Shown one piece after another: positions 15,961-56,862 of a stretch of DNA of 64,000 bases. The notes beneath the pieces were generated by a model. That model did no database searches and was not told the origin of the DNA. It worked only from the letters and a program-made list of their open reading frames with translations. The stretch comes from Octopus vulgaris. Taxonomy: Eukaryota. The stretch covers positions 55,428,001 to 55,492,000 of the forward strand of contig OX597831.1 in NCBI GenBank assembly GCA_951406725.2. Reading direction: 5' to 3'. Made by a program: the position numbers and the translations under genes. How positions within the stretch are numbered: position 1 is the stretch's first letter; every line of letters begins with the position of its first letter.

Positions 15961-16152
15961 GCTTATGGCCATATCACGTTGAAAGCATCGGTTCTCGTCT
16001 GATCACCGAAGTTAAGCAACGTCGAGCCTAGTCAGTACTTAGATGGGTGACCGCTTGGGAAACCTAGGTGCAGTAAGCATAGCACAGTTCAGCGGTGGTG
16101 CCCCAGCATGACCGCGGCCTTCGGGCTAAAACATTTTTAAGGATTTAAGGAT
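15961..16152 (+). mobile_element. 5S rRNA-derived SINE (SINE3) or 5S retropseudogene with LINE-type tail
   Basis: 15961-16080 is a full-length 5S-like sequence (gcttatggcc...gaagttaagcaac...agtacttagatgggtgaccgcttgggaa...gtaagcat) with no oligo-T terminator; followed by ggtgccccagcatg stem-loop tail and (ttaaggat)x2. Confidence 0.85.
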
Positions 16153-18413: not shown

Positions 18414-20525
18414 ATGTTCTGAGTTCAAATACCGTCGGGGTCGTTTTAACGTATCAGACGCACGGATCTTTTCGGTTTGAACGGCAATTTTTTCTAGCGG
18501 TGTCATATGAAATTACCTTTCATCCTTTCGGAGTCGATAAATTAAGTACCAGTTACGCACTGGAGTTGATGTAATCGTCTTAATCCGTTTGTCTGTCCTT
18601 GTTTGTCCCCTCTGTGTTTAGCCCCTTGTGGGTAGTAAAGAAATAGGTATTTCATCTGACTTTATTTTCTGAGTTCAAATTCCGCCGAGGTCCACTTTGC
18701 CTTTCATCCTTTCGGGGTCGATAAATGTTTATTTGAGTAATTGGAATTCGGAACAGAAAGAAACACAAGCGGCGATTTTTCTCTTACATTTATGTACTAG
18801 ATCTCAGAATTGTTTGTCCACTTTATGTTTAGCCCTTTGTGGGTAGTAAAGAAATAGGTATTTCGTCTGCCGCTACGTTCTGAGTTCAAATTCCGCCGAG
18901 GTCGACTTTGCCTTTCATCCTTTCGGGATCGATAAATTAAGTACCAGTTACGCACTGGAGTTGATGTAATCGTCTTAATCCGTTTGTCTGTCCTTGTTTG
19001 TCCCCTCTGTGTTTAGCCCCTTATGGGTAGTAAAGAAATAGGTATTTCATCTGACTTTATTTTCTGAGTTCAAATTCCGCCGAGGTCCACTTTGCCTTTC
19101 ATCCTTTCGGGGTCGATAAATTTAATACCAGTTGAACACTGAGGTCGAGGTAATCGACTTAACCCCACCCTAAAAATTTATGTTTAGCCCTTTGTGGGTA
19201 GTAAAGAAATAGGTATTTCGTCTGCCGCTACGTTCTGAGTTCAAATTCCGCCGAGGTCGACTTTGCCTTTCATCCTTTCGGGATCGATAAATTAAGTGCC
19301 AGTTACGCACTGGGGTCGATGTAATCGTCTTAATCCGTTTGTCTGTCCTTGTTTGTCCCCTCTATGTTTAGCCCCTTTTGGGGCAGTAAAGAAATAAGAA
19401 AATAAGAATCGTCAGCACGCCGGCCGAAATGCTAAACTGTATTTCGCCCGTCGCTACTTTCTAAGTTCAAATTCTACCGAGGTCGATTTTTCCTTCCATC
19501 CTTTCGGGGTCGATAAATTTAATACCAGTTGAACACTGAGGTCGAGGTAATCGACTTAACCCCACCCTAAAATTTATGGCCTTCTGCTTACAGTAGAAAG
19601 GATTATTATTATTATTATTGCTTTCCGGCTCTTTACGTTCAGAACTCAAATGCCGATGAGGTCGCTTTTGCCTTTGATCCTTTCCGGGTCGATGAAATAA
19701 GTACCAGCTGAGAACTGGGTCGATGTAATCGACTTACACCCTCGCTTAAAATTCCATGCCTTGTAACTATAGTAGAAAGAATTATTATTTGTAACTATAG
19801 TAGAAAGAATTATTATTGCTGTAACTATAGTAGAAAGAATTATTGCTGTTGCAAAGGCGGCGAGCATGGCTGAAGCGTTAGAGCATCAGATAAATATACC
19901 TATTGATGTTTCTTCCAGCTCTTTACATTGTTAGTTCGAATTCCGTCAAAGTCAATTTTACTTTTCATCCTTTCGGGGTCGATAAAGTAAGTACCAACCA
20001 AATATTGGGGCTAATGTAATCAATTAATCCATCTCCCCTAAAATTGCTGACTTTGTTCCAATATTAAAACAACTTTTTACATTATTGTCGTTGTTAAGGC
20101 GGTGAGCTTGGCCAGAGCGTTAGAGCGCCGGTCAAAATGCCTTGAGCCAAAATTCGAATCTATTATCGTAAGCACGTCATAAGAAATGCCTAGTGGTACT
20201 TCTGACTCTTTACTTTCTGGTTCGAAATTCCGCCGAGGGCGACCTTGGCTTTCATCCTTTCGGGGTCGATAAAATACTGGCGCCGAAGTAATCGACTTAG
20301 CCTATCTCTCAAAACTACTGACCTTGTTCCAAAATTTGAAATCATTATAAGACAGCGAAATGGCAAAATCGTTAGCCCACCGGACAAAATGTTTAGCGGC
20401 GTTCAAATTCCGCCGAGGTTGTCTGCATTCCATCCTTTCGAGGTCGATAAAATAAGTACCAGACAAGTCCTGGGGTCGATGTAATCAATTAACTCCCTGC
20501 CTTAAAACATTTCAGGCCTTGTGCC
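18414..20525. repeat. Cluster/tandem array of SINE family A units with local duplications
   Basis: Repeated aaagaaatag|gtatttc junctions near 18646, 18857, 19041 and 19213; unique block 18325-18388 duplicated at 18746-18810. Confidence 0.85.
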
Positions 20526-21259: not shown

Positions 21260-22030
21260 GTTATTTAGAACGTTGCTTATTGTGAACATGCATTGCTGGC
21301 GCACCGTCTGTGCACACGCCAACAACGTGCTCCCAGTTTATGCCATGCGTGTTAAAGAATTGGATCCACTTTCTGGGATACATCGTTTGTAGCGGTTCGG
21401 GTGTTACGGGTTTCGCAAAAAAGGAATTCATCTTAGAGATGCTTGTTATGCACATAACGTACATAAACACAAAGTTGTGCTAAATCCACCACGTCAGTGG
21501 TTTCATCAATTTGGATGGCGACATAGTTAAATATTGATGTTTTTTATCTTTGAGATGACCTGAGACAAAATATTATCAGGCATCTCAGCGATTTTTTGAC
21601 TGACGGTGTTGTTGGAAAGTGAAACCTGTTTAAGCTTCTATAGTTCGGACGTTCCGAGCACGATGCCCTCCAAAGTTATGAGGTCGTTTTTTTTTTTTGC
21701 TTTTTTTGGGGGGGTTCAGCAATTTTCCTTGAAACCTCGAAGGAGGCTTTCAGACCAGAAACAATGTCCTGCATATACATTCCTGTGTCAGCAATCCTGG
21801 ATTTGACCAATTTGTCATCTTGGTGTCTGAAAAATTCCTCGTCTTGGTTGACTGCACTGGGATGTTTCATTTCCAAATGTCTCTTTAGCCTGCTGGGCTT
21901 GAGCGGAGAAGCTGCTAATATATCAGAGCACAAAACACACTGTGGTTTTTCCACTCCACCAGCAGTAAGCACGGTGAAACTGAAGCTCAAATATGACTTG
22001 TCATATCTCATTTTCTTTGTAAAAGACATT
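21260..22030 (-). pseudogene. hAT Buster/Charlie-type transposase remnant
   Basis: RYDKSYLSFSFT...PQCVLCSDIL...KPSRLKRHLEMKH (BED finger); WEHVVGVCTDGAPAM (catalytic D motif); probable TIR gtttgggaaccaagg near 24968-24982. Confidence 0.85.
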
Positions 22031-22132
22031 CTACAAATAAATATAACAATATGTAACTGTTGGACTGTAAATGCACAGAATTTTGTACTATTTCATTCTG
22101 TTGAGAAAACTTTGTTACTTTTACCAGTATAA

Positions 22133-22210
<78 letters not shown>

Positions 22211-22217
<7 letters not shown>

Positions 22218-23065
22218 AGGGATATTAGCCAACCGAATATGGCTAGGGACAGGGCAGGGTGGTGGGGGTGTCACTGTTGCATTTAGCCCCAGGCGAACAT
22301 CAACGTCACCAGATAGGCCTGACGCCATCACGGCGTCCTCTATCTTGCAAAGGGAGATCATTCACCAAGAAGCAGATACCACACACAAGGTGTATTGCTT
22401 ATTATCAACGTGTGGTAGGCATCGCTTCTCGATGAACGACCAACTGTGCAAGATATATATAAGGATTTTCAAGTAAATACATTTACTGATTTCGAAAATC
22501 TGTTCGACAGCAATAATAATTCTCTAAATGAGATGTAGACAGTGACTGCTCCATAATATAAGGGATATTAGCCAACCGAATATGGCTAGGGACAATGCAA
22601 CAGTGACACCCCCACCACCCTGCCCTGTCCCTAGCCATATTCGGTTGGCTAATATCCCTTATATTATGGAGCAGTCACTGTCTATATCTCATTTAGAGAA
22701 TTATTATTGCTGTCGAACAGATTTTCGAAATCAGTAAATGTATTTACTTGAAAATCCTTATATATATCTTGCACAGTTGGTCGTTCATCGAGAAGCGATG
22801 CCTACCACACGTTGATAATAGGCAATACACCTTGAAACCTAGGTCCGTGTGTGGTATCTGCTTCTTGGTGAATGATCTCCCTTGCAAGATAGAGGACGCC
22901 GTGATGGCGTCAGGCCTATCTGGTGACGTTGATGTTCGCCTGGGGCTAAATGCAACAGTGACACCCCCACCACCCTGCCCTGTCCCTAGCCATATTCGGT
23001 TGGCTAATATCCCTTATATTATGGAGCAGTCACTGTCTATATCTCATTTAGAGAATTATTATTGC
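22211..23065. mobile_element. Inverted pair of >1-unit tandem copies of a 355-bp HHR element, inside (TA)n
   Basis: Right arm periodicity 22594 to 22949 (355 bp); left arm is the reverse complement (343 bp); junction at 22593/22594; (TA)n on both sides. Confidence 0.85.
22806..22851 (+). ncRNA. Type I hammerhead ribozyme, U3-A8 core variant
   Basis: cacacg-TTGATAA-t-AGGcaatacaCCT-t-GAAA-C-ctag-GTC-cgtgtg; perfect 6-bp stem I. Confidence 0.8.
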
Positions 23066-23068
23066 TAT

Positions 23069-23138
<70 letters not shown>

Positions 23139-23139
23139 C

Positions 23140-23345
23140 AATATGTGACCGCGTGTGTATCGTTGGCGATTTTCTTTCTCCGTTTTACCTTCTTTAGACT
23201 TTTGCTATATTTTTGGTGAAGGGCTCCGTTGGAAACGTGAAACCATCTTTCTTTTCTTTCCTTTCCTGAGCCTCCAATAACACAGTACTTGTTCCACGTC
23301 CTCGCGTTGTTGTTTTTTCTTACTTGTTCTTCTTTTGATTGACTA
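23140..23345 (+). mobile_element. Short (TA)n-embedded element (group 2) with dead HHR
   Basis: Reverse-complement homolog of 26568-26769; TTGGTGA-a-gggctccgttg-GAAACGTG at about 23213-23240. Confidence 0.7.
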
Positions 23346-25487: not shown

Positions 25488-25514
25488 TATATATATATAC
25501 ATATATATATATAT

Positions 25515-25910
25515 AAAGTATAGAAGCCATCTTAATATGGCTAACCACAAAGGGGAGGGGGTGTTACTGTAGCTTTATAGCCCCAGGGGATCATCGTCTC
25601 CAGCTGGCTTTAGACAGCATTTCAGTGCCCTTGAAGTATTTGCAAATACTTCAAGGGCACTGAAATGCTGTCTAAAGCCAGCTGGAGACGATGATCTCCT
25701 GGGGCTATAAAACTACAGTAACACCCCCTCCCCAAATACTTCAAGGGCACTGAAATGGTGTCTAAAGCCAGCTGGAGACGATGATCTCCTGGGGCTATAA
25801 AGCTACAGTAACACCTCCTCCCTTTTGTGGTTAGCCATATTAAGATGGCTTCTTTACTTTACATTATCGAGCGATTACTGTTTACATCTCATTCTGAGAT
25901 TTAATAATTA
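25515..25910. mobile_element. Fold-back plus tandem duplicate of a group 1 element 3' module, inside (TA)n
   Basis: Spacer-less palindrome centred at gaagtatttg|caaatacttc (about 25642); ~90-bp tandem repeat; single copy at 54230-54350. Confidence 0.85.
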
Positions 25911-36694: not shown

Positions 36695-37080
36695 CAGGCA
36701 ACTTTATCGCTGGTCACAATTTACGATCTTTTTTTTTTCTTTTCATTTGAAAAGGAAACTGTGGCTGGAGAAGAGGTGTCTGTCGGAGTGTACGTTCCAA
36801 AAAAGATGGAAGCATGTTGCACGAGTGTTGTGCGTGCAAGGAACCGTGTGAATAGACGGGAAAAAAAAGGTATCAGCGGTAGATCGGGGCTTGTGGGATC
36901 GGAGCGTAACTTGATCATCGCTTCATTTGTATTGTTTTTGTACAGTGTATTCCATTCGATTTTTTATGTATTGTATTTTATTTTTAAAGTCACATTTATG
37001 TAAAATCATATCGATTCACTGATCCCATCAGTTGTACTATCCATATCTATGTTTGGCCCCTGGTGGGCAATAAAGAAATT

Positions 37081-37634
37081 CGTATTTCGTCTGCCGCTAC
37101 GTTCTGAGTTCAAATTCCGCCGAGGTTGACTTTACCTTTCATCCTTTCGGGGGTCGATGAATTAAGTACCAGTTACCCACTGGGGTCAATATAATCGTCT
37201 TAATCCGTTTGTCTGTCCTTGTCGGGCCTCTCTGTGTTTAGTCCCTTGTGGGTAGTAAAGAAATAGGTATTTCGTCTGCCGCTACGTTCTGAGTTCAAAT
37301 TCCACCGAGGTTGACTTTACCTTTCATCCTTTCGGGGTTGATGAATTAAGTACCAGTTACCCACTGGGGTCGATGTAATCGACTTAATCCGTTTTTCTGT
37401 CCTTGTCTGTCCTCTCTGTGTTTAGCCCCTTGTGGGTAGTAAAGAAATAGGTATTTCGTCTGCCGCTACGTTCTGAGTTCAAATTCCGCCGAGGTTGACT
37501 TTGCCTTTCATCCTTCCGGGGTCGATGAATTAAGTACCAGTTACCCACTGGAGTCGATATAATCGACTTAATCCGTTTTTCTGTCCTTCTTGGTCCTCTC
37601 TGTGTTTAGCCCCTTGTGGGTAGTAAAGAAATAG
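37081..37634 (+). repeat. Three tandem headless SINE A units (~184 bp)
   Basis: Units start gtatttcgtctgccgctacg at 37082, 37267 and 37451. Confidence 0.9.
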
Positions 37635-38084
37635 ATATTATTTTAATTCTTGTTTTTGTTGACAAATTTAGCGAATAATCAATCTAGTCTGTCTCTCTCA
37701 CATGCGCGCACATGGATGCGAGTGTGGAGGGGTTGTATGCGTGTATGAGAAAGGAAACGAGAACAAAAGGAATTCTGAGCGACTGAGTGCGGGTAGAGAC
37801 AAATCAGGAGTGTTTTTGGAGTCCTTCAGATTTTTTTCTCTTTTCTTTCATGCACCCAAATATTTCTGCCCACATTACAAAACACAATACGCACACATCG
37901 TATTATTCTCCATTCTTTTACTTCGTTACGCACGTCCTCAACTCTAAACGTATTCATACAAATAATCCCAGCCCCCAGCCCCCACCGCTCTTTCAAATCA
38001 TTTCATATTTCCATTTTTTTTGTTGTTGTTGTTGAAAACATCACCGTTATCATTCATCATCATCATTAATAGTAGACGGTGGCA

Positions 38085-51712: not shown

Positions 51713-52198
51713 GTTGAGAAAGTGTTAGTTACCAGTGTTTGTATACATCGTTGCAGAGTATTGGTTTTGGGGAGACAGGGAAACAGCTGTTAGGAGTATA
51801 TTTATGCGTGTATGTGTCATCCGGGTTAAAAGTGGTTGAGCTGGGAGTAGTAGAGAATGATTAAATTGGCGAACGTCGTGTGATGGAATGCTGTATGTTT
51901 GTTGGTTGTTATAGACGTGAGAAATAATGAAGTGACTATGTGCACATATTGGTTGAATAGAGACATTGTCTCAATGAGAGTGTCATCTCCGTAGGTGTAG
52001 TTGTATAACTTCTATTTTCGAGTGTTTAACACTAATTGTTTTAATCTTTCATCACATGTTAGACTCAAGTATGTAGCTAAACACATACTTCAACTTTGAG
52101 ACAAGTGTATGCATGCATACATGTATATATAGTTAATCCTAACATGAAAACACAAAGAGAAAATACAACAACGCGAGGAAAGGAAAGAAAGAAGAAGG

Positions 52199-52233
52199 AT
52201 TTAACGTTTCGAGGAGAGCTCTTCGTCAGAAAC
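52199..52233 (-). ncRNA. Minimal hammerhead motif (group 2), canonical core
   Basis: gttt-CTGACGA-a-GAGctctcCTC-GAAA-CGTT-aaat. Confidence 0.7.
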
Positions 52234-52354
52234 ATAGAATGTATGTATGTATGTATGTATGTATGTATGTATGTATGTGTATGTATGCATGTGTATATGT
52301 GTGTGTGTGCGCGCGTGTGCGTGTGAGCACTTCCATATATATATATATATATAT

Positions 52355-53036
52355 CATCATCGTTGAACGTCCGTTTTCCATGCTAGCATGGGTTGGATGT
52401 TTGACTGAGGTCTGGAAAGCCAGCGGGTGCACCAAGCTCCAATCTGATCTGGCAATGTTTCTACAGCTGGATGCCATTCCTAATGCCAACCATTCCGTGA
52501 GTGTAGTGGGTGCGTTTTACGTGCCACCGGCACAGGAGCCAGTCGGGGGATACTGGCATCGGCCACGTTCGGATGGTGCTTTTTACGTGCCATCTGTACG
52601 GGAGCCAGTCAGGGGGCACTGGCCACAGCTACGATTTTGGTTTTACTTGACCCAACAGGTCTTCTCAAGCATATCATATTGTCCGATGCATCAAGGACAT
52701 GCAGCACTGGCATCGGCCATGACTGCGATCTCACTTTAGTTGCCGGGTCTTCGCAATCACAGCATATCTCCAAAAGTCTCGGTCTCCTATCATTACCTCT
52801 GTGAGGCTCAACGTTAGAAGCTCATGCTTCACCACCTCATCCCATGTCTTCTTAGATCTACCTCTTCCACAGGTTCCTTCAACAGTTAGGGTGTGGCACT
52901 TCCTCCCACAGCTGTCCTCGTCCATACATAACACCTGACCATACCAGCGCAGTCGTCTCTCTTGTTTACCACATTTGATGCTGTTTATATCCAAATTTTC
53001 TCTCGGGGCGCTCACACTCTGTCGTGTATTTACACT

Positions 53037-53894: not shown

Positions 53895-54229
53895 TGCATA
53901 TATGGGTACAGGACGTTACCAACGGTGCAAATAACATGAAATACGTAAACAGACGATGGAAAACAGGACAAGTAAGCACAGAGAAAGGACCCTTCATCAG
54001 TTGTCAGCTGTCTTTCTACTCCTCATTTCAAACATTCAACGACAATATGAGTCTTCGAAGACAGTTGCTCCTATAAATACCAAAATAAAATCTGGGATTT
54101 ATGGAGGGTCAAAGCTGGGAGCAAAAGCAGGGCAGCGGAGACATACAAGGAAACCGAACGAAAACAAACGTGGAGGGTCGTTAGACCAGGACGAGGGTAA
54201 AATACCGATATATATATATATATATATAT

Positions 54230-54350
54230 AAAGTATAAAAGCCATCTCAATATGGCTAACCACAAGGGGGGTTACTGTAGCTTTTTAGCCCCAGGAGATC
54301 ATCGTCTCCAGCTGGCTTTAGACACACTTTCTGTGCCCTTAAAGTATTTG
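54230..54350 (-). mobile_element. Group 1 3' module copy adjacent to (TA)n
   Basis: Collinear with 25515-25642 and has the same end, aagtatttg. Confidence 0.8.
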
Positions 54351-55684
54351 CCCCCGCCTCCCACCATGCCTTCTATGAAAAGTCCTTGTGAAAGTCCTAA
54401 GTGTCCTATAACGCTGGAGGATAAGTAGGCAATGATAAAACGTCATGAAAAAGTTGCAGCGATTGCACGATCTTTTGAGAGTAAATCGGACAACTGTATC
54501 GACGATTGTGCATAATAAAGACAAGATTTTAACATATATCACATCTGAAGCACCAGAGATGAGGAACACAGTCTTAAACAAGAAAAGAAGCAAAATCTTT
54601 GAAGAAATGGAAAGTCTTCTAACTATTTGGATTGATAGGCAGAATCGCCAGAATGCTACTCTTAGTCAAGAGATCCTTCAGGAGAAAGCGTTGTCTTTGG
54701 GGACCTGAAGGAAAAATATCCAGATAAGAAAGATATAGAGTTCAAGGCAAGTCAAAGATGATATATGAGATTTAAAAAACGGAGACGTTATCACTTCCTT
54801 AAGAAGCAAGGTGAAAGCGCATCAGTTGACAAACATGCAGCAGCGAATTTTCCTGCGACATTGAAGAAAATCATTTTCACACATTTGAAAAAAATATCTT
54901 GCTATGTTCGAAGATATGGATCCAAATGCTCAACGCTTTTCTAAGATTATGGGGGCTTATCACGAAGCTTTTGCTCCTTATAATGTAATCCTTGACGAAA
55001 AGAAGACAGTTCAAGGCACTCTTGACTAGTTTTTTTTAAACGCATCGAACGACAACGAGAACTGCCAGAATCAGCTGATGACATTGACGTCGACGATCCT
55101 CGGCCATCTAGGGGCGGCGAGCTGGCAGAATCGTTAGCACGCTGGGCGAAATGCGTAGCCGTATTTCGTCTGCCGTTACGTTCTAAGTTCAAATTCCGCC
55201 AAGGTCGACTTTGCCTTTCATCCTTTGGGGGTCGATAAATAAAGTACCAGTTACGCACTGGGGTCGATGTAATCGACTTGATCCGTTTGTCTGTCCTTGT
55301 TTGTCCCCTCTATGTTTAGCCCCTTGTGGGTAATAAAGAAACAGATACTCGGCCATCTACATCTACAATGTAAACATCACCGAATTTTACGTATTGGTAA
55401 ATTTAAAATACTTTATTATTTCTTTTTTTTTTTTCTTTACTTTATTACAAAATAATAATTATTTGCTTCTAAGCTTAAAATAGGTTTTTATTAACCGTGT
55501 CTTACTGAAATTGTAAGCTTAAAAAATACTTTTATTAACCATGTCTTATCGAAAATGCATTCATAGAGTGCTGGGGAACGGCTATTAGCAGTTTAGGCTA
55601 GGCTAGCCTGGCCTATAGACACGCAATTCGACTTAAGTCGTGTCTCCTGGAACCAATTAACGACTTAGAGTGAGGTATACCTGT
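54351..55684 (+). mobile_element. Tigger/pogo element remnant (CENP-B HTH), internally deleted, with SINE A insertion 55110-55342
   Basis: NRTTVSTIVHNKDKI...EEMESLLTIWIDRQNR..LSQEILQEKALSL; end gaggtatacctg|ta; SINE flanked by ctcggccatcta TSD. Confidence 0.85.
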
Positions 55685-55918
55685 AGTTATCTTTGGAGTG
55701 TCAGCGGTTGTCATTGTCGGATATTTGTTACGTATCTGGGAATCTAGTCGAACGGCTATTAGCAGTTTAGGCTAGGCTAACCTGGCCTATAGACGCGCAA
55801 TTCGACTCAAGTCGTGTTTCCTGGAACCAATTAACGACTTAGAGTGAGGTATACCTGTAGTTATCTTTGGAGTGTCAGCGGTTGTCATTGTCGGATATTT
55901 GTTACGAATCTGGGAATC
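55577..55918. repeat. ~175-bp tandem duplication spanning the Tigger right end and its flank
   Basis: gaacggctattagcag...tctgggaatct occurs twice. Confidence 0.9.
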
Positions 55919-56862
55919 TTGTCTTTCTCATTCCCAAAATGAGCCCCCACTCCTTAATTTTGCTCAGATTGCTTTCAATTTTGGTGTATCAATGCAACTC
56001 TGAATTTTGATTGCGATCAACCGATTGCTTTATCTCGTAATTTAAAGAATTCTGATGTTATTTGGAATTAAATTTGGGAAATTTGGGTAATCTTAGCCAA
56101 TCAACAGACAGCGTGGCATTAGCAGCTTGTTATCATGACAACCGCATGCTGTGTTTTGGTTCACTGTTGTCTGTGCCGCTGTTGTCTATGTTGATTTTTC
56201 ACTTGATTCTTCACAACATGAGATTCTTTTCACCCGCATGTTTTATTTTAATTTTTCTGTGTATTAGTATGTTGCATATTTTCTGTGTTTCTGTGTGCTA
56301 GTATTTTTTCTGTGCTTTTTTCTGTGTTAGTATTTTTACATATTTTTCATTTTATATATTTTTGAGATTCATTGACTCAGCTTGATTTATGATTTCCATG
56401 GGTTAATTCTACTCCTAAAAACTTAAATTAGGAGTATTTGTTAAACCGTTGGCTTCACATTTCAACAGCCCACGTAACAGGAATTGAGAGGTATATCATG
56501 GAACAGAGAAACTGTGGGTGATTCAGATAATTTGACATTATTTTGGAAATTCTGCATGCGAAAACATAAGAGATACAGTTATTCTTTTCCTTGGGACAAA
56601 TTCTTTGTTGACCAGTGTTATTCTTATCGTAGTTTACAAATCCAGGCATGAAAACGTTACTCAAATTTGGAGTTTTGGAGAGAGATGTCACTCCCCCCCA
56701 CACACACACACTTTATACTACATTGTTAATACTCTGGTAATACTATGTAGTGGCTTAATGCAGGCATACACATAACTTATACATACATGCATAACACACA
56801 CATGTATGCATGCATGTTCATGTATATATCTTCTTATATATACATGAACATGCATGCATGCA

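Follow-up and report, generated by a model that had tools for sequence, protein, structure and literature searches.

Animal retrozymes that lack long terminal repeats (non-LTR retrozymes) consist of a non-coding unit of 150–450 nt (350–390 nt in mussels) that is repeated in tandem, has a GC content below 50%, contains a type I hammerhead ribozyme with a weak, palindromic helix III, and is predicted to form a strongly self-paired circle in genomes where Penelope-like elements (PLEs) coexist (PMC7229834; 10.64898/2026.07.22.740005). Circular RNAs have been shown for the 350–390 nt repeats of molluscs (mussel) and for those of axolotl (PMC7229834). In a 2026 preprint, animal retrozymes were interpreted as non-autonomous PLEs on the basis of co-occurrence and pLTR phylogeny, retrozymes were considered 'active' when two consecutive units each have a complete hammerhead, and eight of nine predicted Xenopus retrozymes did not cleave (10.64898/2026.07.22.740005).

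Insertions of EN+ PLEs such as Neptune and Poseidon are truncated at the 5' end, include partial tandem copies and an inverted truncated copy, have a tail of 30–40 nt, usually at one end, and lie in AT-rich or (TA)n targets (10.1101/2021.04.23.441226; PMC3846280). A PLE protein was found in vitro to cut and extend both target strands, using two internal reverse transcriptase (RT) start sites that bound the tail and are alike on the top and bottom strands, and the PAc PLE has a hammerhead upstream of its two start sites (PMC11167929). Cercyon PLEs (Schistosoma) carry minimal hammerheads without helix III that have a U3-A8 core covariation and occur as opposite-strand pairs 100–700 bp apart, and copying from a circular template has been proposed in the same work (PMC4209133). 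Chlamys elements such as MRC1 are non-coding partners of a PLE that form pLTRs head-to-tail; they lack a hammerhead and their 3' ends match those of their partner (10.1101/2021.04.23.441226). The spread of animal retrozymes and the formation of inverted, tailed Penelope insertions both still await explanation.

A head-to-head retrozyme insertion in Octopus vulgaris

We analysed a 64,000 bp stretch of Octopus vulgaris contig OX597831.1 (positions 55,428,001–55,492,000), here called the window, in which all coordinates below are counted. Two head-to-head arms of a 355/356-nt repeat unit occupy 22210–23066 and are bounded by (TA)n tracts. The right arm (22594–23066, plus strand) is 473 bp and is made up of a 355 bp unit, one T short of the usual 356 nt family unit, and a repeated 118 bp that is 100% identical. 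It contains one intact type I hammerhead motif (22806–22851, plus strand) with predicted cleavage after 22845. The left arm (22210–22594, minus strand) is 385 bp and runs from unit position 33 round to 74, and the arms meet at 22594 with 1 nt common to both. To the left lies a (TA)n target tract (22128–22209) and to the right an AT-rich spacer with a further (TA)n tract (23067–23136); any target-site duplication is unreadable inside (TA)n. This layout agrees with a first-pass annotation made from the sequence alone, which had described arms of about 1.3 and 1.1 units in different registers, the left the reverse complement of the right, one intact hammerhead and (TA)n on both sides. The same annotation considered the arms nearly identical except for a 13-nt deletion in the left arm. 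The deletion is there, but two substitutions and a 1-nt indel also set the arms apart. In the left-arm hammerhead (22379–22415, minus strand), which the deletion breaks, the deletion junction is 22387/22386, and a substitution at 22399 disrupts a pair of helix II.

When a 23-mer from the motif was used to search the genome (2.8 Gb, 227 contigs), 191 exact matches were returned, against none for the reversed control, and the abundance of the motif is therefore not due to chance. As the first 100 of the 191 listed matches represent 64 loci, we estimate at least about 120 insertions. Ends were surveyed in 43 distinct insertions (77 arms), taken from the 30 best DNA matches and the first 30 pattern matches, and their median identity to the copy at 22210–23066 is 97%. 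The 356-nt unit has a GC content of 0.445 (44.5%), again below 50%, and there is no LTR. Its length is not a multiple of three, no PLE protein match was found in the window, and the open frame at 22697–23197 is presumably a chance one. In these properties, and in its tandem non-coding unit, type I hammerhead with weak palindromic helix III, strongly self-paired predicted circle and coexisting PLEs, the family resembles the animal retrozymes described above. It differs from them in that copies are mostly inverted pairs of 0.3–2.7 units rather than arrays. We conclude that the element is of an already known kind, an animal (non-LTR) retrozyme, and that 22210–23066 is a real, young and likely PLE-inserted copy of it. 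Ribozymes and retrozymes do not appear in the main text of an octopus repeat annotation (PMC13282606). Assembled contigs of four sequencing runs, two of which we presume to be RNA, contain pieces of the family, in a form in which strand, ends and circles are unreadable.

Two or more intact motifs were present in 12/77 family arms, and among the first 100 of the 191 listed matches no locus exceeded three motifs. With its one intact motif, the copy at 22210–23066 falls below the two-consecutive-hammerhead criterion for an 'active' retrozyme. Because only one ribozyme is intact, this copy is, judged by its sequence, a product and not a source, and would not release a monomer by double cleavage. 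The earlier view of it as the best candidate here for a recently active retrozyme is not supported, as neither arm has two ribozymes and arms elsewhere do.

Hammerhead motif and predicted fold

Parsed by hand, the motif has a 6-bp helix I, a helix II with a U-U at its base, which is also seen in axolotl retrozyme motifs, and a helix III of one base pair with a palindromic loop. The core is UUGAUAA, a U3-A8 variant, instead of CUGANGA; of 69 motifs parsed across the family, 60 have UUGAUAA and nine UUGAUGA. The U3-A8 core distinguishes the family from the animal retrozymes, and hammerhead activity is here a prediction from sequence. The covariation at these core positions is the same as in the Cercyon hammerheads, and the opposite-strand arrangement of motifs is also like theirs, whereas the helix I of canonical size and the short helix III differ from those minimal motifs. 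Rfam hammerhead models had no match to the motif, either at the gathering score or at E values up to 10, and the search gave only sub-threshold matches to miRNA hairpins. The hammerhead helices are conserved across 64 units, and comparison with a sister family that has a 357-nt unit, alignable to the 356-nt unit over its full length, revealed covariation in helix II and in the palindromic helix III. The sister family retains U3-A8, while its helix II and helix III palindrome are altered in a compensated manner.

The circular monomer has a predicted fold of −114.0 kcal/mol, against −83.1 ± 5.0 for 100 shuffles (z = −6.1), in the form of a rod that joins both monomer ends. In the right arm, the predicted rod (22767–22889, plus strand) extends helix I and would pair both ends of a cleaved monomer. 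Comparison of 64 units revealed one clear compensatory pair in the rod, in 11/64, while in an older subfamily several of the rod pairs are disrupted. For one motif alone, the minimum-energy structure differs from the active hammerhead fold; copies with two ribozymes would self-cleave, probably as a dimeric fold. A register of distal helix I drawn by hand was unsupported by the comparison of units, and we claim no tertiary contact.

Fixed 3' ends and one putative start site per arm

The 3' ends of 69/77 arms from the 43 insertions lie at unit position ~74 or ~118, with 37 at 69–74 (short ends) and 32 at 110–120 (long ends), and (TA)n follows directly beyond the fixed end in 63/69. The 5' ends are variable and scattered across the entire unit. 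Head-to-head inverted pairs account for 30/43 insertions. Where both ends could be classed, 25/25 pairs combine a short and a long end, with no short+short and no long+long pairs (binomial p = 3e-8 against independent 50:50 choice); each of the other five has one short end and one unclassifiable end. Single-arm insertions include six short and seven long ends, and two further pairs, from loci found in a search for shortened motifs, also obey the rule. In 19/30 pairs the arms share 1–7 nt of microhomology at their junction. The copy in the window has the same configuration: the outer end of the left arm, at 22210, is the short fixed end and has no tail, and the outer end of the right arm is the long fixed end, with a 44-nt tail (23023–23066, plus strand; unit 75–118) that lies between the two fixed ends and appears to be the interval between two RT start sites.

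In the sister family, classed by eye, 17 pairs were found in 29 loci, of which 12 are short+long, one (L121) is long+long, an exception to the rule, and four are unclassifiable; as the query demanded a long end, short+short pairs could not appear in this count. A coding element with RT and GIY-YIG domains has the tail on a single arm in 7/7 pairs (21 loci).

Fixed ends, one per arm, are the published signature of Penelope insertion. As the insertions start at two fixed points, one in each arm, a Penelope-type enzyme likely inserted the family. The 5' truncation, partial tandem, inverted truncated copy, one-end tail and (TA)n target are all shared with EN+ PLEs, and the hammerhead lies upstream of the two start sites, as in PAc. 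The family differs from the EN+ PLEs in having no RT/GIY-YIG open reading frame and in its tail of 44 nt versus 30–40 nt, and from the animal retrozymes in showing a PLE end signature, their ends being unmapped in the parts of those papers that bear on this. Given the end rule and the published PLE marks, the 'different registers' at this locus reflect two start sites combined with random truncation. The description of a tail as usually on one end is thereby sharpened to a near-strict rule of one site per arm. A search of the literature on Penelope twin priming and on target-primed insertion of retrozymes, with subscription papers mostly outside its scope and the supplements of the 2026 preprint likewise, found neither a one-site-per-arm count nor end maps of retrozymes.

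A circular or a multimeric template

Arms below 85% identity and L016, a compound insertion that BLAST had misaligned, do not enter the counts within arms and of read-through. The cleavage site is crossed two or three times in 13/73 arms, 56/69 arms are too long for a cleaved linear monomer, and 0/77 arms have a 5' end within 3 nt of the cleavage site, where about 1.5 were expected. Tandem units within an arm differ at 78/6783 sites (1.15%), compared with 3.0% between insertions. Paired arms have 208 non-majority variants in common and differ at 79/7324 positions, and private variants are repeated in both units or both arms in L024, L009, L056 and L019. As the site is read through, no arm stops there and both arms carry one haplotype, the sequences favour a template that was likely a circle, read round and round. 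The first-pass annotation had proposed that longer-than-unit, permuted copies arose by reverse transcription. Copying by RT, probably from a circle, is supported, while the permutation is not, since in the copies collected only the 5' ends vary and the 3' ends are fixed at two sites.

The same Penelope-type insertion could have used as its template a linear multimer that was never cleaved and came from transcription of tandem copies, with the ribozyme dispensable and no circle formed. Read-through and the lack of stops at the cleavage site fit a homogeneous multimer equally well, and arms with two or more intact motifs exist. For the PLE studied in vitro, insertion was unaffected by ribozyme mutations, most of the substrate was RNA that had not been processed, and the RNA-seq data had no reads with an end at the cleavage site (PMC11167929). 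We nevertheless regard a multimer as unlikely. No long master array was found, the longest clean arm among the 43 insertions being 955 bp, and the first 100 of the 191 listed matches include no more than three motifs per locus. Copying of a linear RNA could not by itself restore length. Homogeneity of the units in an arm is seen across many different haplotypes, and differences within arms rarely recur, with 7/67 seen in two loci, four of them at CpG. In addition, the motif is strongly conserved and covaries.

The 13-nt deletion

The deletion corresponds to 22834–22846 or 22835–22847 of the right arm, the alternatives reflecting a 1-nt G microhomology. It takes G12–A15.1, helix III and the GUC triplet, plus 1–2 nt 3' of the predicted scissile bond, and the earlier statement that it removes exactly the cleavage segment is accurate to within 1–2 nt. 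A search with the junction returned one match, this locus, and the deleted form was not found elsewhere in the genome. In the assembled contigs of the four runs, none of the 27 pieces listed out of 63 spans 22386/22387, a result of no weight because such contigs drop single-copy variants. One other deletion search was weak, as its anchors fit only 6 of ~64 sampled motifs, and a search for shortened motifs was used instead. It found seven, against 191 intact; the one in the window is the sole multi-nt deletion and the other six lack one base. In 29,763 arm bases of the family there is one other deletion of at least 8 nt (13 nt, in L005, elsewhere in the unit); an 8-nt deletion in L049, which lies in an arm of the sister family, does not count towards the main background rate. 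At that rate, a breakpoint no more than 2 nt from the site would turn up somewhere in 191–250 motifs with a probability of 5–13%, which is an underestimate because the loci were chosen for high identity.

Most likely the left arm suffered a single lesion, on the plainest reading during repair or later, and the deletion is probably incidental; as a singleton it loses the special status it had been given. An RT that met the ribozyme-cleaved nick and jumped 13 nt via the 1-nt microhomology would account for one breakpoint lying 1–2 nt from the predicted scissile bond, for the lost piece being the segment between helix II and helix I, and for the rarity of deletions of this size in the family. We find such a fossil doubtful, since this is a single case selected after the fact, the background alone gives the percentage above, and the same left arm has two further substitutions. 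A left arm copied from a mis-ligated circle, as the first-pass annotation had suggested, would explain why the deletion spans the ligation junction. However, both arms share two non-majority variants (unit positions 50 and 266), which fits a single template haplotype, the junction is undamaged in the right arm, and genome searches did not find the deletion in sibling insertions. As one haplotype is present in both arms and the right arm is intact, this origin is very unlikely. Palindromes between microsatellites assemble poorly, and the inversion or the deletion might for that reason be an assembly artefact, but four events separate the arms, their fixed ends are not the same, and this asymmetric inverted form, not to be expected of a fold-back artefact, recurs in 30/43 insertions. 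An artefact is therefore extremely improbable.

Coding Penelope-like elements and the partner enzyme

No RT/GIY-YIG frame is present in the element, and tblastn matches in 1.5-kb flanks were found at only 3/99 loci (L012, L032 and L056), all beyond the arm ends; the L012 fragment is broken and set off by (TA)n and other DNA. Of 6136 GIY-YIG candidates, 150 were scored, and 59 coding-PLE loci drawn from these were compared with the unit; none resembled it in sequence, and the unit cannot be aligned to these sampled PLEs. Because of this, the partner is deduced from the footprint and is not named. The family is like the Chlamys elements in being non-coding, head-to-tail, pLTR-forming and the putative partner of a PLE; it differs in having a hammerhead and in the lack, in the loci sampled, of a match between its 3' end and a partner. 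One match of the unit to a PLE locus (L103) was rejected, as the matching sequence belongs to an independent sister retrozyme, 650 bp beyond the element end. The first-pass annotation had raised the possibility that copies have fixed ends and are simply pLTRs attached to a coding PLE. Fixed ends were found, at two sites, and no examined copy runs on into a coding element.

A young coding element in the genome has RT and GIY-YIG domains, the nuclease being preceded by a zinc-finger-like motif. It inserts in (TA)n and would be Neptune-type by the description in 10.1101/2021.04.23.441226. Of its 76 matches, 75 are at one score. Two copies of a young Neptune-type PLE (L101, 81–3784, and L100, 406–4090) retain an intact RT+GIY-YIG frame of 781 aa, with another open frame upstream that overlaps it, and a hammerhead-like U3-A8 motif was recognized by eye shortly before the 3' end. 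In a PLE family with a 775-aa frame (L138–L157, L103), the long ends of 7/7 inverted pairs stop within the element's own (AT)n run, and seven single-ended long copies extend a few bases past the (AT)n stop.

Proposed route of insertion

We propose, with a probability of about 0.72, that 22210–23066 is a recently inserted copy of a 356-nt non-coding repeat with a hammerhead, likely mobilized in trans by the RT/GIY-YIG protein of a PLE, probably Neptune-type, and likely from a circular RNA monomer. Copies with two ribozymes would be transcribed, would self-cleave, probably in the dimeric fold, and would be ligated to a circle. A Penelope-like enzyme would then cut both strands of a (TA)n tract, and each target 3' end would prime cDNA at one of the two sites, with a run of variable length round the template, before the two cDNAs join head to head via 0–7 nt of microhomology. 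The orientation of the arms suggests that each is first-strand cDNA joined to one target strand. Several observations speak against this route: no partner was found in the loci sampled, the minimum-energy structure of one motif is not the active fold, start sites did not differ between top and bottom strands in the PLE studied in vitro, and the sister pair L121 breaks the end rule. A bolder version, in which a PLE dimer primes one ribozyme-made circle from both cut target strands, always at a different one of the two sites 44 nt from each other, and rolls round it, and in which the deletion is also the fossil of a jump over the ribozyme cut that traces U3-A8 cleavage in vivo, is improbable as a whole.

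The family ties the spread of retrozymes to the formation of Penelope insertions through its insertion footprint, not through sequence likeness. The useful result is the end rule at the level of the family; this one locus, with its deletion, contributes little further. A 356-nt template is small enough for the end rule and the need for a circle to be tested with purified PLE protein.

Sister copies and neighbouring features

The window includes two copies of the sister family. At 25511–25910 lies an inverted pair, one end short and the other long, that contains an internal duplication of 90 bp, and at 54226–54350 a single short-ended arm. Elsewhere in the genome, both arms of four sister pairs (L119, L127, L135 and L108) begin at the same unit position, at short palindromes, and their junctions are near-perfect hairpins. 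The compound insertion L016 has several family arms nested around an internal (TA)n, which suggests re-insertion into the (TA)n tract of an earlier copy.

Directly to the left of the insertion is a broken transposase-like frame (21676–22092, minus strand), presumably of hAT/zinc-finger BED type. To the right, 23137–23345 is the end of another abundant repeat, also found near 52143–52380, with a minimal hammerhead-like motif (52229, minus strand); the 23137–23345 repeat is 76% alike to DNA beside a GIY-YIG match in L079. An isolated 5S rRNA copy (104.7 bits) lies at 15961–16079, and an 11-nt likeness between the hammerhead motif and this gene, at 16059–16069, is at chance level. The window also contains a two-copy 174-bp tandem (55576–55923) and two three-copy 184-bp tandems of a SINE-like repeat (18810–19396 and 37046–37639).
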